DNA of 64,000 nt, taken from an uncultured Pseudomonadota bacterium (lineage in GTDB: Bacteria > Pseudomonadota > Alphaproteobacteria > Rs-D84). The notes below the pieces were generated by a model. It did not search any database. It had not been told where the DNA came from and saw only the letters and a list, made by a program, of their open reading frames with translations. Numbering within the stretch: position 1 is the first letter of the stretch; the number at the start of each line of letters is the position of its first letter. Both the position numbers and the translations under genes were made by a program. The stretch lies in the NCBI GenBank assembly GCA_902793005.1, contig CADBBQ010000001.1, positions 32,860-96,859 of the forward strand, in the 5' to 3' direction. Below are positions 4,201-62,746 of the stretch, piece by piece.

Positions 4201-5040
4201 TAGTGTTCAGAATAATTAGACAAAACGTTGAAAACGTTTTGTCATCCTGAGCGTAGTGAGATTACGTTGTGGCAACCCCACATAAGTAATCGAACGCAGT
4301 CGAAAGCGAGCGTTTCGCGAGCGCGGATCCAGGCATATTTGATGCCCTGGCGCATCCGCGCCACCCCCTCGGACATTCCCCTTCTTTATGAAAGAAGGGG
4401 TGGATTGTGAGCAAAGCGAACAAGACGGGGTAGTTGTGATTTTTATTTTTTATGGCGACTGGCGTCGCTCTGCACAACGTTGAAAACGTTGTGCAAAAAT
4501 TTATTGCATACGCAAAAAAATTTTTTCTATAATAACATCAGAAATCATCTGGGAGTTGATTTCGGAAGGCCTTAGAAAAGCCCGATTGACCCGGTGCAGA
4601 ACTTGCATCGTTATCCCACCCGTGCACGATTCGATTCGGTGCGGTTGTGTTTAACAATTCATTTTTTGCACCGACATTTATTTGTCGATATTTGATTAGA
4701 TAAATGTAAATTTTATTCCCGACTAAAAAACCCGCCCAAAACACATTCACATATTTTGGCATGGGTGCCGCATACAGTAATGTATGTGGGGTCATTGGTC
4801 AATTGATTTTTCTAACACCCTGCCGTTATTTTTTCCCGCTGATTTCCCAGCGGTTTTTTGTTTGTTTTGGAATATTTAAACAGGCCCCGAACCCAACTCC
4901 CTGTGTAGAAAACACACACAAGGCCTTTTATTCCAAACAAACAATCCACCGCACAGATTCCGCCCCAAGCGATAGCGTGGGGAGGGGGACCGCGCCAGCG
5001 GTGGCGGGGGTTAACAAAAAGAAAGAACGGGAGAAAAGCT
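4201..5040. repeat. Copy A of a conserved non-coding leader/repeat region upstream of a secreted-protein gene (second copy at 36181-37393)
   Basis: Long stretches with obvious similarity to 36181-37393. Shared blocks are the cttctttatgaaagaagg hairpin, the acggggtagttgtga block, the promoter-like ttgca(t/c)acgcaa...ttttttctataata, and ggtgccgc(a/g)tacag(t/c)aatgtatgtggggtcattg...tttgctaacaccc. The RBS context gaacgggagaaaa(g/a)ctATG is also shared. The ORFs predicted here (e.g. 4228-4410) lie inside repeat DNA. Confidence 0.7.
4503..4538 (+). promoter_or_regulatory. Putative sigma70-type promoter (TTGCAT-18 nt-TATAAT) within the conserved leader; the matching copy is near 36545-36580
   Basis: ttgcatacgcaaaaaaattttttcTATAATaac. 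The same arrangement (ttgcacacgcaataaaattttttcTATAATacc) is found in copy B. A perfect palindrome cacaacgttgaaaacgttgtg lies immediately upstream and may be an operator. Confidence 0.4.
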
Positions 5041-7269
5041 ATGATAAAGAAAATATTATGTGCGATGTTGGGGCTATTATTCACGATATCTGCAAACGCG
5101 GCATGCAATTTATATACAACAACAAATAGTTCTGCCGGATACATTGATGGAAGTGGTGTTGTACAAAACGCGAGCAGTTATTTGGCAACGGATTACATTG
5201 CGGTTAACTCATCAACCGAATATACCGTTTATATCAAACAGAACGCTGCCATTAGCGGTCACGGGGTTCGTATTGCGTTTTATGATACAAACAAACAATT
5301 TATTTCTCCGCGCCTTGGTGGCGATGCCCCAAGTGCCGGTCAATATATATACAATTTAACATCGCCTGCAAATGCTAAATATATCAGAATGTCAACATAC
5401 GACGGTAATAGTGTTGTCGACAGAACAATAGTCCAGGGTCGATATACCGTGGACACAATCCCAACAAATATGTCGCAATGTGCGACGTGTGACGGGACGA
5501 TTGTGAATTATGTTTCTGCAACTGGAACCGTGTCGCAATCTGGAACTCCAACACCAGACAATCCGATTTATCCAACTTTCTATACCCAGGGCAATATGGT
5601 CCTGCGCAAAGTTGGCAATGTCGCAGATTCTTACGATGCGTCAACGGGTAAAATCACTCGTCGCGTCGGTGTTGCTGTGTTGGATGGTACGGAGAGATGG
5701 GGTGCTCACGCCAGTAACGCAGGTTGGTTTCAATTATCAAGTGATATTTTCCCAACAGATGTTAATACAGATGCATTAAGTACACACTATAGGCAATACA
5801 CACATAATCCATCAAGTATGGCCAATCAAGACATTTTATTTGGACGTCCAGACAGTAGCACAGGAAGAGTTGTTATACGTGATGCTATAAACTTTCCTGA
5901 TGTAGGTCTTGCGGATGATTTTAAATCCTGGCTAGCGCAACAATATGCTGCGGGAACGCCCGTGACGGTTTACTATCCGTTGAAAACGGAAACGACCGAG
6001 GATTGGCCGGCGTCTTACTGTGAAACGCCGATTAAAATCGCTACAACCAAATACAACGAAACTGCATTCAGTCCGCTGAATACGGCGTTGGCGAATGCGA
6101 TTAGTGTGGTGGATTCGGTGGTGTCAAACACGATAACCCAGGCGGCGAGCATCGCGACTTTGCAGGCACAAAAGCAAACGCGGCCGGCGAATGACACTTG
6201 TCCGGCGTACAAACAATGTTTATTGGTTGAGGATGAAAACGGTGCCCCGCACTGGTACGAAATCACCGACCCGTTCCGGGATTTCGTCCGCCCAATTATC
6301 GCGAACAATGTCAACGCGGCATCGTCGACATCCACCAATGGTTATACACAATTGGAATACATCGAATCAACCGGAACACAGTATATTGATACGGGGGTAC
6401 AAGCAACGGGTGATCTTGATATTAAAACAAGATTTAAAATAATATCATACGGCCCCCTATTTGGTACACGAGATGTTGCTACAGGAGCATCGAATAAATC
6501 GGTTTGGGTGGCAGCTTTGGACGGAAGAACCATTTGGTTATACAACAATAAAACTACACATAACCATTTGGAAAAATTAAATTTAGATCAATGGTATGAT
6601 GCAGATATAAACAAAGGCGTGTTATCTTTTAATGGCAATGAAGTTGCGTCGTATGAAACAGAAAATTTTACTGGTTCTGATATATTTCTATTTAATACAA
6701 ATGAGGCCAATGGCACTCTTGCAAGTGGGGCTTCTGTACAAATATCATATTTCAAAATTTATGATGCATCTGGCACCCTCGTTCGCAACTTTGTTCCAGT
6801 TGTTAATAATACAACCGGGAAAATTGGTATGTATGACACTGTCGGTGGGCGGTTCTATGGCAATGCGGCGACGTCGGGTGATGATTTCACCGCGGGTCCG
6901 ATTGTTGAAAACGATGCGGATGTTCCGGGTATGAGTTGGACCGCAACATGGGCGGCGGATGCATCCACGGGTGTTTCAGCCGGCACGGTGTACGGCATCG
7001 CCCGGTGTAATACCCACCCCTCAACGGCAGGTAGCATCATTACGGACACCGCCAGTACCGCATTTAACACACTGGGAAGTATTTGTCACTGTAAAATGAC
7101 ATCAATAGATTTCGAAGGCAGCATATCGGACACAAACACCGCAAAATGGGTGCATGTTGACCATGCAAACGGCGGAACAAAGGTATGTCTACAACAATGC
7201 AGCACATGGTGTCGCGGTTTTACAACAATGACCGAACGCAACAAACCGGTATTATCATCCGTATTGTAA
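5041..7269 (+). CDS. Secreted or lipoprotein paralog A (742 aa) of a two-member family; function unknown
   Basis: N-terminal signal peptide MIKKILCAMLGLLFTISANAAC. A central block (IKIATTKYNETAFSPLNTALANAISVVDSVVSNTITQAASIATLQAQKQTRP...CLLVEDENGAPHWYEI, YTQLEYIESTGTQYIDTG) is nearly identical to 37394-38899, while the N- and C-terminal parts diverge. C-terminal motifs are shared as well (GKIGMYDTVGGRFYGN vs GVVGMYDTDNGVFYEN). Confidence 0.7.
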   Translation: MIKKILCAMLGLLFTISANAACNLYTTTNSSAGYIDGSGVVQNASSYLATDYIAVNSSTEYTVYIKQNAAISGHGVRIAFYDTNKQFISPRLGGDAPSAGQYIYNLTSPANAKYIRMSTYDGNSVVDRTIVQGRYTVDTIPTNMSQCATCDGTIVNYVSATGTVSQSGTPTPDNPIYPTFYTQGNMVLRKVGNVADSYDASTGKITRRVGVAVLDGTERWGAHASNAGWFQLSSDIFPTDVNTDALSTHYRQYTHNPSSMANQDILFGRPDSSTGRVVIRDAINFPDVGLADDFKSWLAQQYAAGTPVTVYYPLKTETTEDWPASYCETPIKIATTKYNETAFSPLNTALANAISVVDSVVSNTITQAASIATLQAQKQTRPANDTCPAYKQCLLVEDENGAPHWYEITDPFRDFVRPIIANNVNAASSTSTNGYTQLEYIESTGTQYIDTGVQATGDLDIKTRFKIISYGPLFGTRDVATGASNKSVWVAALDGRTIWLYNNKTTHNHLEKLNLDQWYDADINKGVLSFNGNEVASYETENFTGSDIFLFNTNEANGTLASGASVQISYFKIYDASGTLVRNFVPVVNNTTGKIGMYDTVGGRFYGNAATSGDDFTAGPIVENDADVPGMSWTATWAADASTGVSAGTVYGIARCNTHPSTAGSIITDTASTAFNTLGSICHCKMTSIDFEGSISDTNTAKWVHVDHANGGTKVCLQQCSTWCRGFTTMTERNKPVLSSVL

Positions 7270-7312: not shown

Positions 7313-7371
7313 ATGTTTGCTTTTGTTGTGTGATATTGCTATATTTTCTGCGTTGATATAAAGGCGGAAAT

Positions 7372-7878
7372 ATGAAGGTTGCTATTAAATATTTATCAAT
7401 AATTTTTGGTGTCATATTATTGGACCAAATTGTTAAATCTTTATTGTTATATCTGATTACGGGGACTGTGCCGGTGGCGGGTAATGCGTGGGGTATCGTT
7501 GGGTATCCGTATATTATGGCGCGCGTCACCGATTGGTTTAATATTGTGTTTACTTGGAATCCGGGAACATCGTTTTCTTTGTTCCGTGCCCTGGGCGAGG
7601 GCGCACCCTGGGTCATCGTTGGCGCAACCGGGGTGATTTGTGCGATGCTGGTTTATTATATGTTTTGGCGCGCCGGGAAAAACGAGCGGTTGCCGCTGGC
7701 ATTTATTATTGGTGGCGCAATTGGGAACTTAATAGACCGTGTGCGTTTTGGCGCGGTGGTTGATTTTTTGGATTTTCATATTGGCGGACTGCATTGGCCG
7801 GCATTTAATATCGCCGATATGTTTATTGTAATTGGTGTTGCGTTGTATATAATCAATATAACTTTTCGTAAAAAATAA
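7372..7878 (+). CDS. lspA: Lipoprotein signal peptidase (signal peptidase II)
   Basis: 168 aa with four transmembrane segments and the conserved NxGxxF/FNIAD motifs (WNPGTSFSLF; FNIADMFIVIG). Confidence 0.9.
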   Translation: MKVAIKYLSIIFGVILLDQIVKSLLLYLITGTVPVAGNAWGIVGYPYIMARVTDWFNIVFTWNPGTSFSLFRALGEGAPWVIVGATGVICAMLVYYMFWRAGKNERLPLAFIIGGAIGNLIDRVRFGAVVDFLDFHIGGLHWPAFNIADMFIVIGVALYIINITFRKK

Positions 7879-7889
7879 AGGGTAAAATA

Positions 7890-9458
7890 ATGGTTGAGTA
7901 TCTGAATAATAATTCTGGATTTGCGGCGTGGAATGCGGCACAAAATCGCGGTGCACCGCGTTCGCGTTTTTCGAATTTTTTATGGTGGACATTTTTGTTT
8001 TTGGTTGCGTGGTGGATTGTTGGATTGTTTATGTCACCTGCGCAAAACGAAAATAAAAACGCGCCGGCGGCGGATGCGTCAATTTTGGTGGATGTGTCAA
8101 ATGTCCCGGTGTATGAAATTTCATCTGACACGATTGCGGCAAATGTTCGTGGCCTGCGCGTGTCAAATATAGATTTAAAAGATTTTGCAAAATCGGGCGA
8201 TGACAATACGCCGGTACGAATGCTGGGCGATGATGGATTTGTTGAAATTGGCCTGACGTCAAACGGCACGACCGCGCCAAATGCCACGACAAAATGGCAA
8301 AAATCTGGGGATAAAATGGTTTGGCGCAATGGCGACGGTGTGGAATTTTCTCGCACAATTACGGTTGATGGATATTTAATTCGCGTATCAGACACGGTTA
8401 AAAATAATACGAAAAACGGAATTTCTGTGGCGCCATACGCACGCGTGTTGCACAAGGGCGATGCATCGTCGTCGGCCGGCGTTTATACCGGTGCCGTTGC
8501 ATATGTAAACCAAGATGTTGAAAATAACGCGTGGCGTGATTTGGATAAAAAATCATACGCATACACAACGACAAATGGATTCGTCGGATTTGCCGAGCAA
8601 TACTGGGAAACAATTGTGCAAACCGATGCGCCCGATCAAACAATGCGTATGAAAAAGCAGGGCGATTTATACGAGGCCGCAACCGTTGCCGCGCCGGTAA
8701 ATATTGCGGCGGGAAAGACACAGACAATCACAACAAATGTTTTTGCCGGCCCGCGCGATGCAAATGTGTTGCGCACGGTTGACGCGACAATTAACGGTAT
8801 TGGCGAAACCATAGATTATGGTTGGTTTTGGTTCTTGGCACGGCCGATGTTGTGGTCAATAAATATGATTCATAAATTTGTGATGAATTATGGTTTGGCG
8901 ATTATAATCTTTACGATTTTAATTCGTATTTTGATGTGGCCATTGACGCGTAAATCATATACTTCGATGATTGCAATGCAGAAAATGCAGCCTGAATTGC
9001 AACGCGTGCAAAAATTATATGCTAATGACAAACAACGTATGCAAATGGAAATGATGCGTGTGTATCAAACGCACAAAACATCACCTATGTCGGGATGTTT
9101 GCCGATGTTGATTCAGATTCCAATTTTCTTTGCATTGTATAAAGCGTTATTGATTTCGGTGCAAATGCGTAATGCGAACTTTTTATGGATACACGATTTG
9201 GCGACGATGGATCCGTATTTTATATTGCCGATTTTAATGGGCGCAACAATGTGGTTGCAACAATATCTGCAACAAAATAAAACAGACACGAAAAACAAAA
9301 ATGATATAACGGCTCAAACCGCCCAGGTTATGAAATGGATGCCGATATTGTTTGCAATAATGTTTGCGTGGATGCCATCCGGCCTGGTGTTGTATTGGAC
9401 TGTATCGAATATATTTGGTATCGGCCAGATGATGTGGTTAAAACACAAATCAAAATAA
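7890..9458 (+). CDS. yidC: Membrane protein insertase YidC
   Basis: 522 aa: an N-terminal transmembrane helix, a large periplasmic domain, and the conserved C-terminal 60-kDa-IMP core (YGLAIIIFTILIRILMWPLT...MQKMQPELQRVQKLY...MSGCLP). Confidence 0.93.
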   Translation: MVEYLNNNSGFAAWNAAQNRGAPRSRFSNFLWWTFLFLVAWWIVGLFMSPAQNENKNAPAADASILVDVSNVPVYEISSDTIAANVRGLRVSNIDLKDFAKSGDDNTPVRMLGDDGFVEIGLTSNGTTAPNATTKWQKSGDKMVWRNGDGVEFSRTITVDGYLIRVSDTVKNNTKNGISVAPYARVLHKGDASSSAGVYTGAVAYVNQDVENNAWRDLDKKSYAYTTTNGFVGFAEQYWETIVQTDAPDQTMRMKKQGDLYEAATVAAPVNIAAGKTQTITTNVFAGPRDANVLRTVDATINGIGETIDYGWFWFLARPMLWSINMIHKFVMNYGLAIIIFTILIRILMWPLTRKSYTSMIAMQKMQPELQRVQKLYANDKQRMQMEMMRVYQTHKTSPMSGCLPMLIQIPIFFALYKALLISVQMRNANFLWIHDLATMDPYFILPILMGATMWLQQYLQQNKTDTKNKNDITAQTAQVMKWMPILFAIMFAWMPSGLVLYWTVSNIFGIGQMMWLKHKSK

Positions 9459-9482
9459 TAAATCTATAAAGGAAAATAAAAA

Positions 9483-10529
9483 ATGTTCAGCGTTATAAAA
9501 AATTTATTCGGGCCACGTGGAATAAAAATAACTGCGGGTGAATTGGCGACGAAATTCGGTCTGGAATTGCGTGGGAATAAAGATGTCGTTGTGCGTGGTG
9601 TTGCGCCAATCGCGGATGCGCGCCCGGGTCAGTTGGCGTTCTATTCCACCGAACAAAACAGTGCCGCGTTTAAAATTTTGCCAATTGACGTTTTGCGCAA
9701 AACGCGTGCGACGGTTATATTGCTGCAACCGGCGCAAATCAACGATGCGCCTGCGGGTGCAACTTTGTTGGTGACGGATTCGCCGCGTGGAAATATCGTA
9801 AAAATATTGGGCGAAATTTATCGTGAAAAACCACGTTTCGGGGTCAGTGCCGACGCCCGTGTCGAACGTGGTGTGTTCTTTCGTTCGCGTAAAACAAATT
9901 ACGTTGGCCAATTTGCAACAATTGAGCGTGGCGCGGTGATTGAACCGGGCGTAAAAATTTATCCCGGTGCATACATCGGTCGTAATGTCACATTGGGGCG
10001 GGGCACAATTGTATATAGTGGCGCACATATTGAAAACGCCACAATCGGTGCAGATTGCGTGATAAACGCAAATGCCGTGATTGGTAAAAATGGTTTTGGT
10101 TATACCCGCCAAGACGGACACAATATTTTCATCCCACACGTGGGACGCGTGGTGCTGGGCGACCGAGTGTCGGTTGGTGCGAATTCTTGCATTGATCGTG
10201 GCGCGATGACTGACACGATTGTGGGCAATGGCACGAAAATAGATAACCTGTGCCAAATTGCGCACGGTGTTGTTGTGGGGGCTGAATGCTTTTTGGCGTC
10301 GGGCGTTGGATTGGCCGGTGGCACGGTTATTGGTGACCGCGTGTTACTGGGGGGGCAAGTCGGCGTCGCCAACGGAATTCATATTGGCAACGATGTCGAG
10401 GTTGGTGCAAAATCCGGCGTATTCAAAAATGTCCCAGACGGCGCACGCATTATGGGTTACCCGGCGGCGGTAGGATTGGAATTTTTCCGCAACTATGCGT
10501 GGGTGCGAAAAAACGCGGCAAAAAAATAA
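9483..10529 (+). CDS. lpxD: UDP-3-O-acylglucosamine N-acyltransferase LpxD
   Basis: 348 aa with the LpxD N-terminal domain (ELATKFGLELRGNKDVVVRGVAPIADARPGQLAF) and left-handed beta-helix hexapeptide repeats. The catalytic-region pattern GFGYTRQDGHNIFIPHVGRVVLGDRVSVGANSCIDRGAMTDTIVGNGTKIDNLCQIAHGV aligns with E. coli LpxD. Confidence 0.85.
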   Translation: MFSVIKNLFGPRGIKITAGELATKFGLELRGNKDVVVRGVAPIADARPGQLAFYSTEQNSAAFKILPIDVLRKTRATVILLQPAQINDAPAGATLLVTDSPRGNIVKILGEIYREKPRFGVSADARVERGVFFRSRKTNYVGQFATIERGAVIEPGVKIYPGAYIGRNVTLGRGTIVYSGAHIENATIGADCVINANAVIGKNGFGYTRQDGHNIFIPHVGRVVLGDRVSVGANSCIDRGAMTDTIVGNGTKIDNLCQIAHGVVVGAECFLASGVGLAGGTVIGDRVLLGGQVGVANGIHIGNDVEVGAKSGVFKNVPDGARIMGYPAAVGLEFFRNYAWVRKNAAKK

Positions 10530-10560
10530 AAAAATTCGGCGATATTTTTCGCCGTTTTTT
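10530..10560 (+). terminator. Rho-independent terminator after lpxD
   Basis: aaaaaaattcggcgatatttttcgccgttttttt hairpin followed by a T-run. Confidence 0.55.
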
Positions 10561-10640
10561 TATCGGGCCCCACAAAATTCCAAAAGAATTTTGTGGGTAA
10601 TTTCCGGGCCCCGCAAAATTCCAAAAGAATTTTGTGGGTG
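10561..10640. repeat. Two tandem copies of a ~38-bp GC-rich palindromic element (gggccccRcaaaattccaaaagaattttgtgggt)
   Basis: Perfect inverted repeat cccacaaaattc-caaaag-aattttgtggg, repeated twice. Related copies are at 34666-34800, 61295-61395 and 61840-61925. Confidence 0.8.
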
Positions 10641-10642
10641 AA

Positions 10643-10807
10643 CTACATAAACCAAGTCCACGGTAATAATAATTTCATCTCGGTTTGATTGTCATAAACC
10701 GGGTCGCCGGTGGTATCAACATCGGGGACGGTATTTGATGTTATGTCTGCAACCTTGCCACAGCCGGACAAAAAACACACCACACAACAGCAAAATATAA
10801 ACTTCAT
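10643..10807 (-). CDS. Small putative lipoprotein (54 aa), below the ORF-track cutoff
   Basis: My own translation of the minus strand: MKFIFCCCVVCFLSGCGKVADITSNTVPDVDTTGDPVYDNQTEMKLLLPWTWFM, with a lipobox (FLSGC) straight after a hydrophobic leader. No similarity could be checked. Confidence 0.35.
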   Translation of the reverse strand: MKFIFCCCVVCFLSGCGKVADITSNTVPDVDTTGDPVYDNQTEMKLLLPWTWFM

Positions 10808-10941
10808 AATTCCACCCATATATTAATTATATTATACCATTTTTTTGCTATAAATTCAATGTTCGTAAATTCTTATTTGCATCATAAAACAAAAGGGTGT
10901 ATATTTGCCGAACGGCTTTTTTTAACAGAGGAATATTTATA

Positions 10942-11511
10942 ATGGATAATTTTGAGTATATGATAAACCCTGATGCATTTATGATGAAAAAATATTTTAA
11001 TTTTTATATGGATAAAGTTTTGCCTTTTGTAAAACAATATACAACCCAAAATCCAGATGGATGTCACGCGTTGGATAAACACACATCTGCGGTTGTGTTT
11101 CGTGGCATAGATTACGCATTGCATTTGAACACAAATCCTGTGCCGGTGGTATTTGCGTGTGCGTTTCACGATATGGCGCGAACAAATGACGGTATGGATT
11201 TTAATCACGGTCGGGACGCGGTGCCTGATGCGAAAAAAATAATGACGGAATTTTCCACAATGTTAAATGCCCAGCAACAGAAAAATGTAATTTATGCGAT
11301 TGAAAATCATACAACGGGTACGATTGCGCCAAATTATGTGTCGGCGTGCTTGTGGGATGCGGACCGGACGCGTATGTCGTGGGAGTACGGATTTAATCCA
11401 AAATTTTTCAATACTGCGCGTGCAAAGTATGTTGCATCACATCCGGCGGCGGATTATATAAAATTTCAAAAACAATTATTTCCAAATTTATTCTGGTCCC
11501 GCGAGTATTAA
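10942..11511 (+). CDS. HD-domain (metal-dependent phosphohydrolase-like) protein; hypothetical
   Basis: H...H (GCHALDKH) followed by the HD dyad (AFHDMAR) and a later D (LWDADRT), consistent with an HD-superfamily fold. The start was chosen at the MDNFEY methionine inside ORF 10897-11511. Low-GC neighbourhood. Confidence 0.45.
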   Translation: MDNFEYMINPDAFMMKKYFNFYMDKVLPFVKQYTTQNPDGCHALDKHTSAVVFRGIDYALHLNTNPVPVVFACAFHDMARTNDGMDFNHGRDAVPDAKKIMTEFSTMLNAQQQKNVIYAIENHTTGTIAPNYVSACLWDADRTRMSWEYGFNPKFFNTARAKYVASHPAADYIKFQKQLFPNLFWSREY

Positions 11512-25132: not shown

Positions 25133-25172
25133 AAAGTTTGAACTTTGAACTTTGCACTTTGAACTTTGATAA
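25133..25172. repeat. TTTGAAC/TTTGCAC short tandem repeat (intergenic rplA-rplJ); an identical 33-mer occurs at 61938-61970
   Basis: ttgaactttgaactttgcactttgaactttgat is found verbatim at both loci. Degenerate relatives are at 36190-36228, 36490-36520, 36945-36985 and 44078-44175. Confidence 0.8.
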
Positions 25173-25318
25173 CAAGATTTCTGTCCGAGACTGATGGTGT
25201 GGCAACACTTAATTCCCATCATAGACAAAGAAAATTCTTTGGGGCAGAAAGCAAAGCCCCACCCACAAAACAATGTGGATGGATAAGTTAAACAAAACGA
25301 AGAAGTAAGGGTATATAG

Positions 25319-33500: not shown

Positions 33501-34664
33501 ATTGTGTCTGAGGGCGATATGGTTGAAAAAGGTGCCAAGGTTGCCGAATGGGATCCATATTCAAACGATATTATTGCGGAAAAAGATGGAACCGTGTGCT
33601 TTAACGATTTGGTCGAAAATGTTTCGTTCCAAGAAGAAGTTGACGGCACAACCGGCATCACATCTCGCAAGGTTATCAATTGGAAAAACGTAACCAAAAA
33701 GGCATTAAACCCGTCAATCACATTGGTTGATGATAAAGGCGAGGTTATATCACTGGGTGGTAAAAAGGTTGCCCAATATATGTTGCCGGTGTATTCGGTG
33801 TTAAATGTTGCGAACGGTGACCACGTTGCCGCGGGTGACATTTTGGCGCGTATTCCTGTCCAGGCGAAAAAGACGGGCGATATTACCGGTGGTTTGCCGC
33901 GCGTCGAAGAATTACTAGAGGTTCGTCGTCCATCCAACCCGGCATTATTGGCCGAGGTTGACGGTACAATCGAATTAGAAGATGCAAAATCGAAAATCAT
34001 TATTCGCATTGAACCGACCGACGGAACGGCGCCTGTGGAATATGCGGTGCCCAAGGGTACAAACTTGTTGGTGCGCAGTGGCGATGTCGTGAAAAAGGCG
34101 GAAAAATTGGTTGATGGTGAACCTGTTCCCCAAGACATCTTGCGTATTTTGGGACAAAAGGCATTGGCGACATTTATGGTTGACCAAGTGCAACAAGTTT
34201 ATCGCTTGCAGGGTGTGACCATCAACGACAAACATATTGAAATTTTGATTCGCGAAATGACACGTCGTGTTGAAATTGCAAACCCGGGCGATACTGGATT
34301 CTTGATGGGTTCGGTTGTTGACCGTGTTGATTTCGAAGAAGAAAACGCCCGTGTTATCCGTGACGGCGGCCGCCCGGCCGAGGCTTCCCAGGTCTTGGTT
34401 GGTTTGACCCGTGCGTCATTAACATCGCGTTCGTTTATTTCAAACGCATCGTTCCAACAAACGACCAAGGTTTTGGTGGATGCCGCCATTAACGGTTCGA
34501 CCGATAAATTGGTTGGTATCAATGAAAACTTGATTGTTGGTCGTCTGATTCCAATTGGCACCGGCGCATATGTCCGCCGTGTTCGTGAAATCGCCAAGGA
34601 AGAAGAACGTGCGGAAAAAATTGCCCGCGAAGGTGGCGAACACCAACAATTGTTGGATATCTAG
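30552..34664 (+). CDS. rpoC: DNA-directed RNA polymerase subunit beta'
   Basis: 1370 aa with a zinc-binding N-terminus (CACGKYKRIKNRGIICEKCHVEV), the catalytic NADFDGDQM motif, and the bridge-helix/trigger-loop regions. Confidence 0.97.
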   Translation: MTNMLQKIFGQIETKEQFDALRITIASPEEILSWSHGEVKKPETINYHSLKPEPEGLFCQEIFGPVKDYECACGKYKRIKNRGIICEKCHVEVGPSAVRRERMGHIKLAMPVAHTWFLREGKIAVLLNNLPQKKLEQVISYDAYIVIEPGLTSLKLYDVISEDEYQAKVEEFGPDAFRVGIGAEGVRSIIANLDMGDERTRLRAELADAKSEQKRKLLIKQLKLVEAFLDSKTEPAWMLPDILPVIPPDMRPLVTLDAGHVAASDLNDLYRRVIIRNNRLKRFMEMHAPDIIIRNEKRMLQEAVDSLFDNGHKARPMVSQNRRPLKSLSDSLRGKSGRFRMNMLGKRVDYSGRSVITPGPTLRMHQVGLPKTMALELFKPFVFARLLAGGYANTLKTARKMVENGEDIVWEILEKVIYQHPVLLNRAPSLHRLSLIAFEPVLIEGKAIRLHPLVCKGFNADFDGDQMSVHVPISLEAQLEARTLMLSTNNVLSPANGEPMTVPSQDMVLGIYYISLINGEHDEKKSPRFSGMDEVKLALENHVITLHTPIYARINGKTYATTAGRMILGELLPKSDKMPFDLVNKVMPKKAIEKLLATAYENCGDKAMILLADALKDTGFEQAARSGISIGFNDIVIPEEKESMIAESTRAAEEIEEQYQNGLLSGGERHNKLIDLWQKTTDKLGDLAYATLGKTTGENWNSVYMMALSGARGSKGQIQQLAGMRGMMQKPDGSIIEVPIISNFKEGLTMSEYFTSTHGARKGMSDTALKTATAGYLTRRLVELAQNTVITEHDCGTHEFITAKPVYQGSTLVVPLGDVVLGRTAAHDIVNPITKEVIVPAGELVTKSASKVINECGLPSADVRSVLTCQSDGLCAKCYGMDLSRNALVHVGEPVGVIAGQSIGEPGTQLTLRTFHIGGIAESSAESHFIEMPVAGRIKLIGVNTITNKSGRVVVLSRNGEIAVVDDKDNKLFSCALPYASKLIVSEGDMVEKGAKVAEWDPYSNDIIAEKDGTVCFNDLVENVSFQEEVDGTTGITSRKVINWKNVTKKALNPSITLVDDKGEVISLGGKKVAQYMLPVYSVLNVANGDHVAAGDILARIPVQAKKTGDITGGLPRVEELLEVRRPSNPALLAEVDGTIELEDAKSKIIIRIEPTDGTAPVEYAVPKGTNLLVRSGDVVKKAEKLVDGEPVPQDILRILGQKALATFMVDQVQQVYRLQGVTINDKHIEILIREMTRRVEIANPGDTGFLMGSVVDRVDFEEENARVIRDGGRPAEASQVLVGLTRASLTSRSFISNASFQQTTKVLVDAAINGSTDKLVGINENLIVGRLIPIGTGAYVRRVREIAKEEERAEKIAREGGEHQQLLDI

Positions 34665-34665
34665 T

Positions 34666-34800
34666 TCCCCTCCCTTGGAGGGGAGGGCCGGCCCGGGCCC
34701 CACGAAATTCCCACAGAATTTCGTGGGTGGACACAGCCGGAGGGGTGGTTTCTCCCTTGGAGGGGAGGGGCTTGTCCCACGAAGCCTTGGCGAAGTGGGA
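34666..34800. repeat. Cluster of GC-rich palindromic elements downstream of rpoC, probably doubling as a terminator
   Basis: Hairpins cccctcccttggaggggaggg, gggccccacgaaattcccacagaatttcgtgggtgg and ctcccttggaggggagggg. Same family as 10561-10640, 61295-61395 and 61840-61925. Confidence 0.75.
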
Positions 34801-34878
34801 TGGCGGGGGTAAACTTTTCCTTGCAAAAACGGAATTATGAATTAAAATACATCGAACAAAAAATAAAAAGGATTAAAA

Positions 34879-36192: not shown

Positions 36193-37393
36193 GTGTTCAG
36201 AGTTCAAAGTACAAAGCACAAAGTACAATTATGGCAGGATAATTCATTCTCGGACATTCTCCTTCTTTATGAAAGAAGGAGTACCCGAGCAAGCATCGGC
36301 GCGCGAGGGGGAGGTAGTTGTGCACGGCGACAAAGTGAAACGGCGTCGCCATAAAAAAAATTAAAAATCACAACTGCCCCGTCTGACTCGTTGACACTCG
36401 TCATCCACCCCTTCTTTTCCCGTCCCCGCACAGCGGGGCCGCGGTTGAAAAGACGGGGAATATCCAATAATAAATAATTATGCCACAACTGAACTTTGTA
36501 CTCTGTACTCTGAAAACTGCACAACACCCGTTGTGCAAAAAAATATTGCACACGCAATAAAATTTTTTCTATAATACCTTTGTGAATCCGAAACAAGGGA
36601 GTTGGATTCCGGTGGCTTTAGCAGGCCTAAAAACTCCGGTGCAAAGTTTGCATCGTGACTCTCCCAATCTGAAAAACCGATTCGATAATCGGGATGATTG
36701 TGTTTGTTGCATCCATATTTTGCACCGACATTTTTATCACGGTGCCGGAGAAAATTTTTAAATCCCCCTGATGAAAATGTAAATTTTTCCCAGACTGAAA
36801 CCCCCATTATAACATTTTATGTTTGTCGGGGTGCCGCGTACAGCAATGTATGTGGGGTCATTGAGTTTTTGATTTGCTAACACCCCGGCCGCATTCCCGT
36901 TTTTGGATTTGGCGGTGTTTTTTATTTTTTCGCGACTGCGAAAAAATAACAGAGTTCAGAGTGCAAAGTTCAGAGTTCAGTTGATGAATTATTGAATTTG
37001 ACTGTGAACCCAGCCCCGGACATTCCCCGTCGCCAATTTTTACCGAGGTAAAACCGAGGATTAAAAATTGAGCGCCGCGCCGTAGCATTGCGCGTTTTGG
37101 GGGAACGAACCTTGTTTTGTCGGCGAAGGCGGGCAAACCCTCGCGTCAGCACAAAAAGAAGGGGTGGCACGAAACCGTCAGGTTGAGTGACGGGGTAGTT
37201 GTGAAAAAATTACCGCACGGTGGCGTTTTGTTTTGGGAAAATTAAAGGCTCCGAATTCAATTCCCTCGACACAACTGCGTTGTGTCTGCGGGGCACTCCT
37301 CGCTCACGACCAGTTGTGTTTAAACAAAACCAGGCTTTTTGTCCCGAAACAAATCCACCGCACGAACAAAAAGAAAAGAACGGGAGAAAAACT
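36181..37393. repeat. Copy B of the conserved non-coding leader/repeat region (see 4201-5040), longer and with extra internal repeat units
   Basis: Shares the cttctttatgaaagaagg hairpin, acggggtagttgtg units (three, one inverted), the TTGCAC...TATAAT promoter, the conserved block ggtgccgcgtacagcaatgtatgtggggtcattg, and gaacgggagaaaaactATG. Confidence 0.7.
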
Positions 37394-38899
37394 ATGAAAA
37401 AAATATTAAGCCTCGTACTGGGGCTGTTGTGGGCTGTGCCCGTATTGGCACAAGAAAATTATTTATCCGCACTGTCATTATCTGGCACTTTTGTTACGGG
37501 CGCCGAAAAACCATATAAAATCCCCGTACGTGTCAGCAACGGCGAAACATCGCAAACCGGATACATTTACGCCAATGCGCCTGTATATAAATTAAGTAAT
37601 TACGCCGACGTGGTTGATTTTCAAACGGGAAAAATTACACGCAATATTAAAAAAGATGTTTTTACCGGAGCAGAAGCCTGGGGATATTCCGGATATGCAC
37701 CGGGCAGATTATTTATATTTAATAACAACGCAAAAAAAGAACTTGCGCTGGGGGCAAGTAATTATTACCCATTTGTAAACAACATAAGCGAAGATATGCC
37801 AGATAAAAGTTTTTCCATCCAAGGATATTCAACAACCCAAAACGGCATATTTTTAAACGATAAAAGTTATACATCCGCGGCTGCGTGGAAAGCGCATTTA
37901 ACTGAATTATATAATGCGGGACGACCGTTGGAAATATATGTTGTGACAAACACGCCCACGGTCGAAGAAATTAATTTATCAACTTTGCCACAAATGTCTG
38001 GAAATGTGACATACCAAGTAATATTCCCAGAACCACAAATTGCAATTGCTACAACCAAATACAACGAAACGAAATTTTCGCCGCTGAATACGGCGTTGCA
38101 AAATGCGATTTCGGTGGTGGACACGGTCGTGTCGAACACGATTACTCAGGCCGGGCGGATTGCGACTTTGCAGGCACAAAAACAAACCCGACCGAACGAC
38201 ATTGCGGACGACAATGAAAAATGCCCCGCCGGCAAAAAGTGCCTGCTGGTCGAAGACGCCAGCGGTGTCCCACATTGGTACGAGATTGTAACAAGTCGCT
38301 TGCCCGACGGCTATACCGAATTGCAGTATATCGAAAGCACAGGAACGCAGTATATTGATACGGGGATTGTTGGAAAATCCATTGTTGGTATAGAATATGA
38401 TTTTACTATATTGAACGATATTACTGTTGGTAGTTCGTTATTTGGTACTCGTTTATACGGAAATGTTGGTAGCGGAATAAACTTTGGGCACTCTGCAGAC
38501 GGAAAAGTAACAGTAGATTTTTTTGACGGCTACAGATATACCAGTAATTTATCTTTTGAAAAAAATACCCCTTATAGATTAGTAGTCCAAAATAATAAAT
38601 ATACACTGTATAATGCTATTACTGGCGCGACAGTAGACTCGCATACTTTTAATGCCACGACTAGTGATTTGGAATATGTTGCTGTTTTATTTGGTTTAAA
38701 TAATGGCGGAAGCATTAGTGCGGCGAAAGATTCTGTAAAAGTCACAAGTTGTAAAATATATACGACTAATGGTACAGTGAACCTTGTTCCTGCTAAAAAT
38801 CCAGACGGTGTTGTTGGTATGTATGACACGGACAACGGTGTGTTTTACGAAAACAAAGGTACTGGAACATTTATCGGTGGACAGCCCGTATTTAATTAA
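37394..38899 (+). CDS. Secreted paralog B (502 aa) of the family that includes 5041-7269; function unknown
   Basis: Signal peptide MKKILSLVLGLLWAVPVLAQ, the internal ATG of ORF 37220-38899 with the same RBS context as paralog A. The shared cassette is IAIATTKYNETKFSPLNTALQNAISVVDTVVSNTITQAGRIATLQAQKQTRP...CLLVEDASGVPHWYEIV and YTELQYIESTGTQYIDTG. Confidence 0.7.
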   Translation: MKKILSLVLGLLWAVPVLAQENYLSALSLSGTFVTGAEKPYKIPVRVSNGETSQTGYIYANAPVYKLSNYADVVDFQTGKITRNIKKDVFTGAEAWGYSGYAPGRLFIFNNNAKKELALGASNYYPFVNNISEDMPDKSFSIQGYSTTQNGIFLNDKSYTSAAAWKAHLTELYNAGRPLEIYVVTNTPTVEEINLSTLPQMSGNVTYQVIFPEPQIAIATTKYNETKFSPLNTALQNAISVVDTVVSNTITQAGRIATLQAQKQTRPNDIADDNEKCPAGKKCLLVEDASGVPHWYEIVTSRLPDGYTELQYIESTGTQYIDTGIVGKSIVGIEYDFTILNDITVGSSLFGTRLYGNVGSGINFGHSADGKVTVDFFDGYRYTSNLSFEKNTPYRLVVQNNKYTLYNAITGATVDSHTFNATTSDLEYVAVLFGLNNGGSISAAKDSVKVTSCKIYTTNGTVNLVPAKNPDGVVGMYDTDNGVFYENKGTGTFIGGQPVFN

Positions 38900-44046: not shown

Positions 44047-44193
44047 AAAAACCGACCATCTGGTCGGTTTTTTCAAAGTTCAATTTTCAAAGTGCAGTCA
44101 ATGCTTCGAACAGGATTTTAATTGTTTTATAATTCATCATTTGAACTCTGTACTTTGAACTTTGTACTCTGGTAAAAAATCCTGATGGATTTT

Positions 44194-59014: not shown

Positions 59015-59614
59015 TTACCACCCCATCCGATTTATAAATCGGGACAAAGTTGCGTGTTTCACCCCCACGATTTTTGCGATTTTATACCGTGTCATCCCCA
59101 TATCCAGTAATTTTTTTACCTTTTTTGCGTTATCAGACAATTTTAATTTTTTTGACTGCGCGGCAAAAGGACGCCCCAATCGCTTGCCGGACGCGCGTAC
59201 ACTTTCCAGGGACGCTTTTGTTCGTTGTGATATCAGGTTGCGTTCGATTTCCGCGGACAGACCAAATGCGAAAGCCATAACCTTGCTTTGAATATCGTTC
59301 CCCAATCGGTAATTTTCTTTCAGTGTCCATACTTGGCAATTTTTATTTAAACACGATTCTAAAATCCGCATAACTTCCAACAATGACCGCCCCAGGCGCG
59401 ATATTTCGGCGGCGATTAAAATATCGCCGTTATTCAAACTGTCTAATAATTGTCCTAATTTTCGTTTGCTTAACGCCTTGCGCGAAGAAATTGTTTCCAT
59501 TACCCATTTATCAATTAGAATATGATTTTTTTTTGCAAACTGTTCAATTTCGAACCGCTGGTGTTGCAGCGTTTGTTTTGTTGACGACACACGAATATAT
59601 CCGATAATAGCCAT
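59015..59614 (-). mobile_element. Serine recombinase (resolvase/invertase family)
   Basis: N-terminal catalytic domain with the nucleophile Ser (MAIIGYIRVSSTKQTLQHQR), a conserved RLGRS region, and a C-terminal HTH (TRYKIAKIVGVKHATLSRFI). 199 aa, the typical resolvase/Hin size. Confidence 0.88.
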
Positions 59615-59831: not shown

Positions 59832-59907
59832 TGGTGCCAGTTGTCGGACTTGAACCAACGACCCTCTGATTACAAATCAGATGCTCTACCAGCTGAGCTA
59901 AACTGGC
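59832..59907 (-). tRNA. tRNA-Thr (anticodon TGT)
   Basis: Reverse complement: gccagtttagctcagctggtagagcatctgatttGTaatcagagggtcgttggttcaagtccgacaactggcacca, with anticodon loop ttTGTaa, T-loop GGTTCAAGTCC and encoded CCA. Confidence 0.85.
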
Positions 59908-60000
59908 AATGTGAACAAATCATATATTTTTTATTTGATAATTTCAAGTGTTTTTTTATGCGTGCTTGCTTTTCGTAAAATCGTTGTTAAAATGATGCTT

Positions 60001-61293
60001 ATGAAAAAATTACCTGAACTTCTTGCGCCGGCGGGCACATTAGACGCATTCAAAACGGCTGTTTTATATGGTGCGGATGCAATTTATGCGGGATTGCCCG
60101 GGTTTTCTATGCGTGCGCGTGCAAAAATTGATGTTGATGGCGTAAAATCCGGTATTGAATTCGCGCACAGCCACGGCAAAAAAGTTTATTTAGCATTTAA
60201 TTTATTTGCGCACGAGCGGGATTTTGAAAATATGTCGCGTGTGGCCGAGGTTGTTGAATATTTAAAACCGGATGCATTAATTGTGGCGGATGCGGGCGTA
60301 TTGATGTGGTGCAAAGAAAAATTCCCCGATATGCCAATCCATATATCGACCCAGGCAAATATTTGTTCGGCGGCATCTGTTAAGTTCTGGCAATCGGCGG
60401 GGGCATCGCTGTGCGTTCTTGCGCGCGAGGTATCGCATCCGGAATTTTGTGAAATTCGTAAACAATGCCCAGATGTAAAATTGGAAATTTTTGTGCACGG
60501 TGCGATGTGTATGGCGTATTCTGGGCGGTGTTTGCTGTCGAATTATATAACGGGCCGTCCGTCAAATCGTGGTGCGTGTGCGCAACTGTGCCGGTGGAAG
60601 TATGATGTCATTTTGCGCGAACGTGAAAGTGGTGTCGAAATGCCAATCGACGAAGATGAACGCGGTGCCTATATTTTGAACAGTAAAGATTTATGCCTGA
60701 TGCCGCGATTAGCCGAAGTATTAGAATCCGCCCCGGACAGTTTGAAAATCGAGGGCCGCAACCGTTCCGAATATTATGTGGGCAGTGTTGTGCGTGCATA
60801 TCGCAATGCAATGGATGCGTGGGCGCGCGACCCGGTGAATTTCAATCCTGATGAATTTATGGCGGATTTAAATGTTTTGGAAACGCGTGGATACACAACG
60901 GCGTTTTTTGATGGGCCTTTGCCGGCGACGGCACACGATTTTGATACAACAAAATCAGATTCCGCATTTCACGCCGCCGGCGTTGTGACGGCTGTTGATG
61001 AATTCCGCCCCAGCCCCAACGGGGCGACCGGGGAGGGGGACCGCGTTAGCGGTGGCGGGGGTATTGTGCTTGAACTGCGTAACGAAGTGCGTGCTGGCGA
61101 CGAAATTACATTTTTATTGCCACGCGACAAATTCAGCATCAAATTGGATAAAATCCAAAACGCCAAAACTGGCGAATTTGTGCCAAAAATGTCCGCAGGC
61201 CAGGGCAACTCGATTTTAATACCGGTTGCCAAAATTCCGCACGAATATTTACCACAAATACAGCAATACATATTGGCATATAAACGCAAATAA
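60001..61293 (+). CDS. U32-family peptidase (YegQ/YhbU-like) with an in-frame repeat-derived insertion
   Basis: MKKLPELLAPAGTLDAFKTAVLYGADAIYAGLPGFSMRARA...VYLAFNLFAHERD...LIVADAGVLMW...HISTQANI matches the U32 N-terminal TIM-barrel consensus. The start was chosen at 60001 because ORF 59911-61293 overlaps the tRNA-Thr region. Confidence 0.82.
   Translation: MKKLPELLAPAGTLDAFKTAVLYGADAIYAGLPGFSMRARAKIDVDGVKSGIEFAHSHGKKVYLAFNLFAHERDFENMSRVAEVVEYLKPDALIVADAGVLMWCKEKFPDMPIHISTQANICSAASVKFWQSAGASLCVLAREVSHPEFCEIRKQCPDVKLEIFVHGAMCMAYSGRCLLSNYITGRPSNRGACAQLCRWKYDVILRERESGVEMPIDEDERGAYILNSKDLCLMPRLAEVLESAPDSLKIEGRNRSEYYVGSVVRAYRNAMDAWARDPVNFNPDEFMADLNVLETRGYTTAFFDGPLPATAHDFDTTKSDSAFHAAGVVTAVDEFRPSPNGATGEGDRVSGGGGIVLELRNEVRAGDEITFLLPRDKFSIKLDKIQNAKTGEFVPKMSAGQGNSILIPVAKIPHEYLPQIQQYILAYKRK
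61008..61062 (+). repeat. G-rich dispersed element (ggggagggggaccgcgNNagcggtggcgggggt) embedded in-frame within the U32 peptidase CDS
   Basis: 34 of 36 nt identical to 4977-5012 in the non-coding leader of paralog A. Here it encodes ...PSPNGATGEGDRVSGGGGIV... inside the ORF without breaking the frame. Confidence 0.7.
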
Positions 61294-61294
61294 A

Positions 61295-61395
61295 ATGCCG
61301 CCCCTGGTTCCCCTCCACCGGGCCCCAAAAAATTCAAATGAATTTTTTGGGTGGTTTTCGGAGGGGAGGGCCACGAAGTGGAGGGGTGGTTTTTT
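61295..61395. repeat. GC-rich palindromic element(s), same family as 10561-10640 and 34666-34800
   Basis: cccctccaccgggccccaaaaaattcaaatgaattttttgggtggttttcggaggggaggg. Confidence 0.7.
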
Positions 61396-61612
61396 ATTTA
61401 TGTGTTTTTACGGCGGTTAACGCCAATCCACGGTGCAACAACGCGCACAGCAAATCCGGTGGAATTGGTAATCGCCCGATTTCATACAAGTATAAATCAC
61501 GCGGCGATATTTTTAAAATTTCCGCCACGGCGGCTTTATTCATATGCAATGATTTGCGCGCCCGGCGTAATTGCTGGCCATACGCGCGTGCATCAATTAA
61601 AACAATAGACAT
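61394..61612 (-). CDS. XRE-family helix-turn-helix transcriptional regulator (small)
   Basis: YGQQLRRARKSLHMNKAAVAEILKISPRDLYLYEIG fits the HTH_XRE pattern. Start taken at the internal Met (MSIVLID) of ORF 61394-61669. Confidence 0.5.
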   Translation of the reverse strand: MSIVLIDARAYGQQLRRARKSLHMNKAAVAEILKISPRDLYLYEIGRLPIPPDLLCALLHRGLALTAVKTHK

Positions 61613-61839
61613 CTTCTCTCCTCCATTTTTAATAAAAAATACCGCGTAAAAAAGCGCGGTTGGAGGCAAGAAAACTACTGAAATAATTAAGGTAGTGCTG
61701 CTTATTCAAAATATTCGCAGCCCTCCAACCAGTTTGGTGGAGTTTTATTATTTCAAAGGGTTTTCTTGACCCACACTGGCAACACACCAATGCAATTATA
61801 TTCTAGCCGATAATCAACGCATTTGCAAATTTATTTTTA

Positions 61840-61925
61840 CCCCCTCCACCGTCTCACCGGGCCCCACGAAATTGAAAATTTCGTGGGTGGTTCACCGGTC
61901 CCCCTCCCCACGCTAACGCTTGGGG
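61840..61925. repeat. GC-rich palindromic element (gggccccacgaaattgaaaatttcgtgggtgg) with cccctcc flanks
   Basis: Perfect hairpin ccccacgaaatt-gaaa-atttcgtgggg. It is followed at 61938 by the 33-nt TTTGAAC repeat. Confidence 0.75.
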
Positions 61926-61930
61926 CGGAA

Positions 61931-62746
61931 TCATTTATTGAACTTTGAACTTTGCACTTTGAACTTTGATATAAAAATTCCGGCGCCAATCACAAACATT
62001 ACGCCCGATAATAATTGTCCCATTGTTAACCCCCAGGTTGTTAAAAATCCAATCTGGGCGTCCGGTGCACGAAACATTTCGCAAAAAATCCGGGCCACCG
62101 CGTACAGCATTGCCAACACGCCCGACAGCGCACCGGGATGTGATTTTAAATTTGTTTTCTTGTATAACCACCACATTAATATAAATAAAATTACGCCCTC
62201 GGTTGCGGCCTCGTACAGGGGGCTGGGGTGGCGTGGCGTGGTTGTGTCGCCACGGAACACGACTCCCCACGGCATATCGGTTGCGCGACCCATAACCTCC
62301 ATATTTATAAAGTTTGCAATTCGGCCAAAAAACAGGCCAATCGGCGCCAAAACTGCACATAAATCCAATAATTTCCACCCGTTTAATTTATTTTTGTGTG
62401 CAAATATAAAATTCGCAATTACAACCCCAATCAGACCACCGTGAAAACTCATCCCGCCGTGCCATACCATAAATATTTCCAACGGGTGCGCAATAAAAAA
62501 CGGCAAATTATAAAATAACACATACCCCAGGCGTCCGCCCAGTATCACACCCAAAATAATCGCGGTTAAAAAATCATCGCTTTGTTTTTTATCCAACATA
62601 ATTCCAGAATTTTTGTCGCGTATCATACGCAAAAACAACCAAAAGCAGATTAAAAATCCCGCGATATAAGCCAATGCATACCAACGAATATCAATGCCGA
62701 ATATTGACACCGCCACGGGCGAAATTGGATTTATAACAATTGCCAT
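61931..62746 (-). CDS. lgt: Phosphatidylglycerol:prolipoprotein diacylglyceryl transferase
   Basis: IRWYALAYIAGFL..., GGRLGYVLFYN, and the Lgt signature GGMSFHGGLIGV. Start at the internal Met (MAIVINPI) of ORF 61931-62794. Confidence 0.88.
   Translation of the reverse strand: MAIVINPISPVAVSIFGIDIRWYALAYIAGFLICFWLFLRMIRDKNSGIMLDKKQSDDFLTAIILGVILGGRLGYVLFYNLPFFIAHPLEIFMVWHGGMSFHGGLIGVVIANFIFAHKNKLNGWKLLDLCAVLAPIGLFFGRIANFINMEVMGRATDMPWGVVFRGDTTTPRHPSPLYEAATEGVILFILMWWLYKKTNLKSHPGALSGVLAMLYAVARIFCEMFRAPDAQIGFLTTWGLTMGQLLSGVMFVIGAGIFISKFKVQSSKFNK

Follow-up and report, generated by a model that had tools for sequence, protein, structure and literature searches.

We report what is likely a piece of repeat DNA that has become protein sequence. 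In the 64,000-nt stretch analysed here (the window; all coordinates are window positions), positions 61001-61062 lie inside the gene of a TrhP-like protein of the U32 family. We think it likely that they are a copy of a new small, non-coding, hairpin-forming dispersed repeat, which entered this gene at the turn of a beta-hairpin. The repeat would be of the kind of the REP (repetitive extragenic palindromic) sequences, with their composite forms BIME (bacterial interspersed mosaic elements) and REPIN (REP doublets forming hairpins), or of the MITE (miniature inverted-repeat transposable element) kind. The gene, the parts of the inserted copy (type A) and its intergenic counterpart are the following:

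60001-61293, plus strand: host gene, U32 family protein (Pfam Peptidase_U32 and an interrupted U32_C; best NCBIfam model TrhP).
61001-61062, plus strand: type-A copy in the U32 gene, AATTCCGCCCC-hairpin 1-GGGGAGGGGGACC-hairpin 2-GGTGGCGGGGGT (nhmmer E-value 5e-9).
61003-61011, plus strand: constant 5' block TTCCGCCCC, which pairs with GGGGAGG of the core block, one G/A mismatch remaining.
61013-61025, plus strand: variable hairpin 1 (GCCCC-AAC-GGGGC), unlike hairpin 1 of the copy at 4956 and decaying in the relative L001.
61030-61042, plus strand: constant core block GGGGAGGGGGACC.
61040-61053, plus strand: variable hairpin 2 (ACCGC-GTTA-GCGGT); allele A' (L007) has a longer module here.
61051-61062, plus strand: constant 3' block GGTGGCGGGGGT.
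4956-5011, plus strand: intergenic type-A copy with two hairpins, 29 nt upstream of the ATG of an open reading frame (ORF) for a 742-aa signal-peptide protein; folding z-score -3.2.

The likeness between the two copies is carried by a 33-mer, GGGGAGGGGGACCGCGTTAGCGGTGGCGGGGGT, at 61030-61062. With up to three mismatches allowed, it recurs in the window only at 4979-5011, where two positions differ (31/33 identical), and 100 dinucleotide-preserving shuffles gave no match at all. Both differences fall in the 4-nt loop of hairpin 2, which reads ACCGC-GTTA-GCGGT in the U32 gene and ACCGC-GCCA-GCGGT at 4979-5011. The resemblance to the 4956 copy also reaches upstream through the shared TTCCGCCCC, giving 50 nt at 80%. 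A first-pass annotation of this DNA had already seen a likeness to a non-coding leader at 4977-5012, which survives alignment and has an intergenic partner copy; its count of 34/36 identical positions was too high, since we counted 31/36 by eye over the 36-nt span. It had also listed related elements at 34666-34800 and 61295-61395, and the motif GGAGGGGAGGG is indeed found at 34677, 34759 and 61360 (three occurrences vs. 0.08 expected). These motifs belong to a sister subfamily with the same architecture as type A.

The host protein was correctly placed in the U32 peptidase family: PF01136 (Peptidase_U32) matches it at 2e-80, and its best NCBIfam model is TrhP, the tRNA U34 hydroxylase (NF011996), with 352 bits against a cutoff of 534, not an equivalog match. 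The longest ORF, 59911-61293, opens with a GTG at 59911, and homologues begin at the ATG at 60001, which is the probable start. This ORF runs unbroken through the element, so the frame is preserved, as had been proposed. At the structural level, the N-terminal domain of an AlphaFold2 model (mean predicted local distance difference test score, pLDDT, 71.6) matches the U32 TIM barrel of PDB 5d88, and a sequence search of the PDB with the protein gave no match.

Alignment to homologues shows that, at the level of sequence, the segment is an insertion relative to the U32 family, in agreement with what had been claimed. The first homologue search returned at least 8000 matches, and most of the 120 listed proteins have 412-414 aa, compared with the 430 aa of the window protein. 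At the site, 19 of the 32 aligned proteins carry the empty reading V-D-D-K-N-I-T-F, at 73-94% identity to the window protein. In the window protein itself the site is V-D-[EFRPSPNGATGEGDRVSGGGG]-I-V-L: 21 residues stand in place of D-K-N, for a net gain of 18 aa over the 412-414-aa orthologues, and the element itself (61001-61062) encodes residues 335-354 (FRPSPNGATGEGDRVSGGGG). A search with the C-terminal 135 aa added nothing, with short fragments of at most 67% identity as its only matches.

The insert splits a domain. PF16325 (U32_C) matches the empty alleles without a break (profile positions 3-72, 31.2 bits, above cutoff), whereas in insert-bearing alleles the match starts only at profile position 16-17 and stays under the cutoff (21.6 bits for the window protein). 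In the AlphaFold2 model, strands 323-332 and 354-359 bracket the insert, whose residues 335-351 have pLDDT values below 50. The insert is thus predicted to be a floppy, disordered Gly/Pro-rich loop at the tip of a beta-hairpin within the U32_C domain. This corrects the earlier placement in a linker region: both the model and Pfam put it at a turn inside the C-terminal domain, as a low-confidence loop between two strands.

Relatives hold the same site in five states, which we call empty, A, A', B, and C. The window, L001 and L056 carry type A. Allele A' (L007) equals A except for hairpin 2, which is swapped for a 15-nt-longer module common in other genomes, and gene conversion across the constant blocks would explain the difference. 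Type B (L002, L005) is a member of a separate subfamily, nearly identical to an intergenic copy (L029:4201), and the same subfamily also provides the U32 insert of the relatives P0004 and P0010-12. Type C (L006) is a type-A relative that entered in a different 5' frame. The empty site reads GTGGACGATAAAAATATA in L004, and proteins with an empty site can be as much as 94% identical to that of the window. Insert alleles come from independent assemblies of ENA, NCBI, Logan, and JGI data (with 7, 6, 18 etc. cluster members), always in frame. A metagenome scan with a 3'-junction pattern gave one more type-A allele (L056) and no new allele types.

The backbone of the gene and its insert do not share one history. 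In a neighbour-joining protein tree built with the insert left out, A, A', B, and two empty alleles fall in one clade, and type C stands among the empty alleles of another. L004, with an empty site, agrees with the window at 97-98% in the first 600 nt but at only 70-78% in the 100 nt flanking the site on each side. L005 combines a backbone close to that of the window (91-99% identical) with a type-B insert that, by our own count, matches the insert of L002 at about 94%; the L002 backbone is only 74-85% identical. Judged from these identities, recombination is shown to have shuffled the U32 region. The site is also empty in P0031, a protein provisionally assigned to the metagenome-assembled genome (MAG) RUG14746; if it belongs there, the element family would predate the U32 insertion, as RUG14746 has at least 11 copies of the element.

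The repeat family was defined on 54 pattern-matched copies from the window and the fetched loci. All share the three blocks TTCCGCCCC, GGGGAGGGGGACC, and GGTGG(A/C)GGGGGT in the same order, with two variable hairpins between them. The first block pairs with GGGGAGG across hairpin 1; hairpin 2 is closed by ACC/GGT, and GGTGG(A/C)GGGGGT forms the 3' end, so that a copy begins with TTCC and ends with GGGGGT. Copies measure 42-96 nt and are G+C-rich, in a genome of 42% GC. The stems vary freely: the 54 copies contain 38 different hairpin-2 sequences. Hairpin 2 is perfect, with a 3-4-nt loop, in 31 of them (23 distinct sequences), and most loops are of the GNA form, GAA accounting for 9 of the 23. 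C(GNA)G loops form exceptionally stable DNA mini-hairpins, for which reason we lean towards a role at the DNA level. A G-quadruplex seems unlikely, as the constant blocks contain no more than three G runs of length three or above.

Copies also combine. Inverted pairs around a spacer of 8 to about 120 nt occur in GC-rich genomes and in the loci L010 and L055; in GC-rich pairs, whose spacers measure 20 to about 120 nt, the two arms are alike in hairpin 1 and unlike in hairpin 2. The paired form has the terminal inverted repeats AATTCCSCCCC...GGGGSGGAATT, which single copies lack. Low-GC genomes contain many single copies as well as pairs, and mosaics with two sister subfamilies. The first is TTCCCCTCC...GGAGGGGAGGGCC...GGTGGGGAGGGT, of which 34664-34810 in the window is a tandem pair; the second, type B, is GGAYATTCCCCGTCTTTT-hairpin-AAAAGAAGGGGGGGACC-hairpin-GGTGGGGCAGTT, with window copies at 4370-4435 and 36372-36466.

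To place the family among bacteria, we scanned one genome per species for 185,579 species with the pattern TTCCGCCCC-N(0-30)-GGGGAGGGGRACC-N(4-34)-GGNGGGGGT. It matched 47 stretches, and every record named more finely than "proteobacterium" was alphaproteobacterial. The low-GC matches are rumen and gut MAGs: RUG14746 (at least 11 strict-pattern copies), RUG13870 (9), UBA3635 (5), UBA3760 (4), two sheep-rumen RGIG MAGs, and one Candidatus Enterousia sp. The GC-rich matches belong to Phenylobacterium, Brevundimonas, Sphingomonas, Allosphingosinicella, Xanthobacteraceae, Rhodoplanes, Roseiarcus, and Micropepsaceae, and GC-rich inverted, REPIN-like pairs span Sphingomonadales, Caulobacterales, and Rhizobiales, with Sphingomonas, Brevundimonas, and Rhodoplanes among their carriers. 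Among 72,556 plasmids, matches were found only in Sphingomonas, Sphingobium, and Azospirillum, in whose replicons the paired form is intergenic, unannotated, and present at up to 10 places per record, a number reached in replicons of Sphingomonas parapaucimobilis YK209. On these sequence records, the family appears to be restricted to Alphaproteobacteria.

Searches for a known counterpart were negative. Rfam, run at gathering thresholds on the whole window and in E-value mode on 60900-62000 and four loci, returned tRNAs and noise only and no family match, and the constant-block strings had no relevant context in the searchable literature. The one Caulobacter paper returned concerns a synthetic YFP gene and is irrelevant here. 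As an observation on inheritance, the copies at 4020-4066 of L016 (RUG14746) and 4343-4389 of L045 (RUG13870), two different species-level MAGs, are orthologous: their flanks are the same, and a single substitution between them disrupts the stem of hairpin 2. Taken as orthologues, they show that copies persist across speciation.

Outside the U32 gene, the family is essentially extragenic. We scored the low-GC loci with a simple gene map, and among 46 low-GC copies those in the U32 gene are the only ones with a convincing gene host. Other candidates were discarded: the L040 copy lies upstream of the true signal-peptide start, the frame across the L021 copy, translated over a sub-range, is full of stops, and what looks like an ORF in L010, L044, L048, and L052 is the repeat itself read as low-complexity protein. 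Twelve copies lie between convergent genes, 15 between tandem genes (10 sense, 5 antisense), and none between divergent ones. Of the 27 fully intergenic cases, 22 have the G-rich strand in sense orientation to the upstream gene. Several copies abut terminator hairpins or sit within them: at about 7660-7705 of L013 a copy occupies exactly the loop of a bidirectional terminator hairpin (GCCGGGAAAT...ATTTCCCGGC), and several further copies stand directly 3' of a terminator T-run, a hint that the element prefers to land in hairpins or T-runs. The 5' flanks of the 54 copies have only a loose preference for TTAA, TAAA, or TGAA.

We propose that the element spreads as single-stranded DNA hairpins, mobilised by a trans-acting enzyme of the REP/IS200-type HUH kind, for which the perfect stems and GNA loops would make suitable substrates. 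Selection would keep only those insertions that preserve the frame in a tolerant loop. Once resident, the copy would go on swapping hairpin modules with other genomic copies through gene conversion across the constant G-rich blocks, and homologous recombination would move the alleles, the empty one included, between strains. The inserted peptide itself probably has no function.

Several results weigh against this proposal. First, the U32 copy folds like shuffled sequence of its own composition (z -0.22), whereas the intergenic type-A copy and type B (z -4.4) fold better. Second, the D(D)KN codons are missing in every insert allele, which is unexpected from a simple insertion and leaves the pre-insertion sequence beyond reconstruction. 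Third, the flanks of the 54 copies contain no target-site duplication. Fourth, a tblastn search for a RAYT (REP-associated tyrosine transposase) with one RAYT query, together with a scan for the HUH...Y motif, found nothing credible in about 450 kb (the window and some 50 loci), which is a weak test, and clustering of 145 ORFs near copies gave no recurrent transposase-domain family. The one recurrent neighbour family (8 of the 145) has no Pfam domain and is not a transposase: its members are paralogous, lineage-specific proteins beside copies in related MAGs, similar to the Pfam-less paralogues represented by the 742-aa ORF. Finally, the constant blocks are identical in lineages from 37% to 72% GC and conserved from gut MAGs of 40% GC to soil bacteria of 70% GC. 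Selfish REP-like DNA seldom shows such class-wide conservation, which may indicate that the host makes use of it.

It is possible, though we lean against it, that the family recognises a DNA sequence or structure at this very U32 codon, and that A, B, and C record at least two to three independent insertions. Three versions of the element, with differing 5' junctions and frames, sit at the same turn; type C arises within a clade that is otherwise empty, and type B belongs to a subfamily of its own that is also found between genes. Like many intergenic flanks, the empty site GACGATAAAAATAT is rich in A/T, and in L004 a palindrome, CACCATGGTG, precedes it. Nevertheless, L005 and L002 have identical type-B junctions on very different backbones, which fits better with allele transfer by recombination. 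Repeated targeting also sits badly with the absence of the D(D)KN codons from all the insert alleles and with the lack of a defined target motif in the flanks of the 54 copies. Besides, selection could mimic such targeting if this loop alone tolerates inserts.

We consider it unlikely that the repeat is a functional host module kept by selection, such as a terminator, a stabiliser of RNA 3' ends, or a DNA site to which a protein binds, with the U32 copy as an accidental by-product of recombination. In its favour are the identical blocks across the GC range, the stems that stay perfect while their sequences change, the avoidance of divergent promoter regions, the terminator hairpins often found beside or around copies (as in L013), and the strand bias relative to the upstream gene. 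These are opposed by the presence/absence polymorphism of copies within a species (the 686-nt segment described below), by the reshuffling of modules into mosaics and inverted pairs, typical of REP/BIME DNA, by the occurrence of both orientations between tandem genes, and by the negative Rfam result. Moreover, the insertion disrupts a protein domain model, which is hardly a selected function.

A more daring reading, to which we give little credence, would make the family a class-wide alphaproteobacterial DNA or RNA module. A conserved factor, either of the host or domesticated, would recognise the invariant G-rich blocks with their conserved G/A mismatch, while the hairpins would be actively diversified or swapped. 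One trhP-like codon would be targeted repeatedly, giving a hypervariable module-swapping loop at the tip of a beta-hairpin.

By contrast, it is highly improbable that the segment is an ordinary lineage-specific expansion of a native G/P-rich loop that resembles 4977-5012 by composition. Gly-rich loops do evolve readily, and the U32 copy folds no better than shuffled sequence. But the 33-mer with two mismatches has no counterpart in shuffles, 54 copies hold three constant blocks in the same order, and empty alleles exist at 94% protein identity, so that shuffles, ortholog alignment, the site DNA of relatives, and the genome scan together refute it. An assembly artefact, in which a chimeric metagenome join put repeat DNA into the gene, is hardly credible: the window and all relatives are metagenome assemblies and repeats are a classic cause of misjoins, but the insert alleles were assembled independently in four data sources, always in frame, and their flanks are colinear with those of empty alleles.

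Returning to the dispersed repeat that we favour, the best-known examples of palindromic repeats inserted in frame into genes come from Rickettsia. The Rickettsia palindromic elements (RPE) are AT-rich. They were reportedly described by Ogata et al. in 2000 and by Claverie and Ogata in 2003, and the first-pass annotation had drawn a parallel to them. The parallel is apt in part: in both cases a dispersed palindromic repeat of an alphaproteobacterium lies in frame in a conserved housekeeping gene, adds a surface-loop peptide, and leaves the ORF intact. It fails in size, composition, and coding habit. RPEs measure about 105-146 bp (PMC3184786), whereas the present element has 42-96 nt, is G+C-rich, and is modular, with two variable hairpins. 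Many RPE copies lie in ORFs, whereas the present family is nearly all extragenic, with the U32 gene as its sole convincing coding site. Unlike RPEs, it also occurs in free-living, GC-rich Alphaproteobacteria, as inverted pairs.

Among known systems, the family most closely resembles REP/BIME/REPIN (PMC2817692, PMC3116915, PMC3337134). They share short, G+C-rich, extragenic hairpins at gene 3' ends and in convergent gaps, mosaics, inverted pairs with a spacer, multiple copies per genome, and vertical inheritance between species. However, REPs are tagged by a conserved GTAG or CGTC tetranucleotide at one end (PMC3733652), and GTAG/CTAC lies within 12 nt of an end in only 4 of 68 present copies. 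In REPs the stem is the conserved part, whereas here the G-rich single-stranded flank is constant and the stems are free to vary. The constant blocks are also conserved across the orders of a class, which sets the family apart. REPs are mobilised by RAYT transposases of the Y1 HUH type, as a rule encoded by a single-copy gene with the repeats on its flanks; the search described above, a weak test, gave no such gene here. The Br-REP1 and Br-REP2 repeats of Bradyrhizobium were rejected because their consensus sequences differ, and the RIME/Sm repeats of rhizobia are unlikely candidates, given plasmid matches in Sphingomonas, Sphingobium, and Azospirillum only.

MITEs found within genes offer a second comparison, namely the 107-bp form of Correia/NEMIS, ERIC/RU-1, RU-2, and RU-3 (Delihas 2007, PMC2759123; PMC2229807). 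They are likewise small and non-autonomous, with open frames and occasional in-frame fusion, and the paired form of our element has terminal inverted repeats as they do. It differs in that half-elements often stand alone, the internal hairpins vary extremely, and target-site duplications are not seen. The CIR elements of Caulobacter and other Alphaproteobacteria (Chen and Shapiro 2003), as summarised in PMC2229807, are intergenic, consist of inverted-repeat arms and a linker, are conserved between alphaproteobacterial species, and are normally not intragenic. That summary defines them by a conserved GANTC (CcrM) site exposed in a loop. GANTC occurs in only 6 of 68 present copies (5 of 46 low-GC and 1 of 22 high-GC), which on this description sets the two apart.

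The U32 case extends in-frame insertion to an uncultured gut and rumen lineage of Alphaproteobacteria and to a different repeat family. Since close relatives keep an empty site, at least three element versions at one codon, and a hairpin-module swap side by side, the steps from selfish DNA to protein sequence can be read from natural variation. The repeat family, which spans Alphaproteobacteria, is apparently undescribed so far, and it provides a defined sequence with which to seek the mobilising enzyme or a binding factor in culturable members of the class. The first-pass interpretation was essentially right; what we add is the natural series of alleles at a single codon, evidence that modules are swapped, and the identification of the repeat family.

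In its 64 kb the window holds three type-A copies plus copies of the sister subfamilies. Besides the two type-A copies described above, the elements are:

4370-4435, plus strand: type-B copy (CGGACATTCCCC...GACGGGGTAGTT).
10565-10638, plus strand: two copies of the GGGCCCCACAAAATTCCAAAAGAATTTTGTGGG hairpin module, which is also nested within mosaic elements.
34664-34810, plus strand: two tandem sister-subfamily copies (TTCCCCTCC-loop-GGAGGGGAGGGCC-hairpin 2-GG.GGGG.GGT), downstream of an rpoC-like ORF.
36372-36466, minus strand: type-B copy.
61295-61395, no strand assigned: mosaic of repeat modules (C-rich half, AT-stem hairpin, G-rich half), directly after the U32 stop codon.
61837-61932, minus strand: type-A copy in which a long CCCACGAAATTTTCAATTTCGTGGG hairpin module takes the place of hairpin 2; part of a 686-nt strain-specific insertion.

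The copy at 61837-61932 is 97% complementary to 4956-4992 and was absent from the first-pass annotation. The segment around it, 61297-61982, fills the gap between the U32 gene and lgt and is missing from the same-species contigs L056 and L001, where no more than a short spacer separates the two genes (with a bidirectional terminator in L001). Its 686 nt contain the mosaic repeat, a 91-aa ORF of helix-turn-helix, XRE-like type (61394-61669, minus strand), the type-A copy, and a heptamer repeat. On these comparisons it looks like a recent strain-specific insertion bracketed by repeats. The same insertion has replaced the last lgt codons (61931-61979, minus strand): the window protein ends in ...FISKFKVQSSKFNK, encoded by the heptamer repeat TTGAACTTTGAACTTTGCACTTTGAACTTTGA, and the ends of relatives differ, with about six residues after ...FI. 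As read from these ends, the lgt tail is a second case in the window of repeat DNA that supplies coding sequence.

The heptamers themselves, TTGAACT/TTGCACT, form a repeat family found in both orientations at 25138-25179, 36947-36992, 44129-44182, and 61938-61979, and they often adjoin type-B elements at other loci. Two paralogous loci about 32 kb apart (4487-4534 and 36529-36576; 6022-6186 and 38030-38194) have leaders that are 92% identical and share parts of large, Pfam-less signal-peptide ORFs (5041-7266, 742 aa); repeat elements precede each of the two loci. Finally, the same-species contig L056 carries about 3.7 kb (7343-11012) beside tRNA-Thr that are missing at 59832-59907 of the window, with the tRNA partly duplicated, which suggests an element integrated at tRNA-Thr. 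In the window, a resolvase-family gene (59015-59614, minus strand) and a 772-aa ORF lie beside this tRNA.

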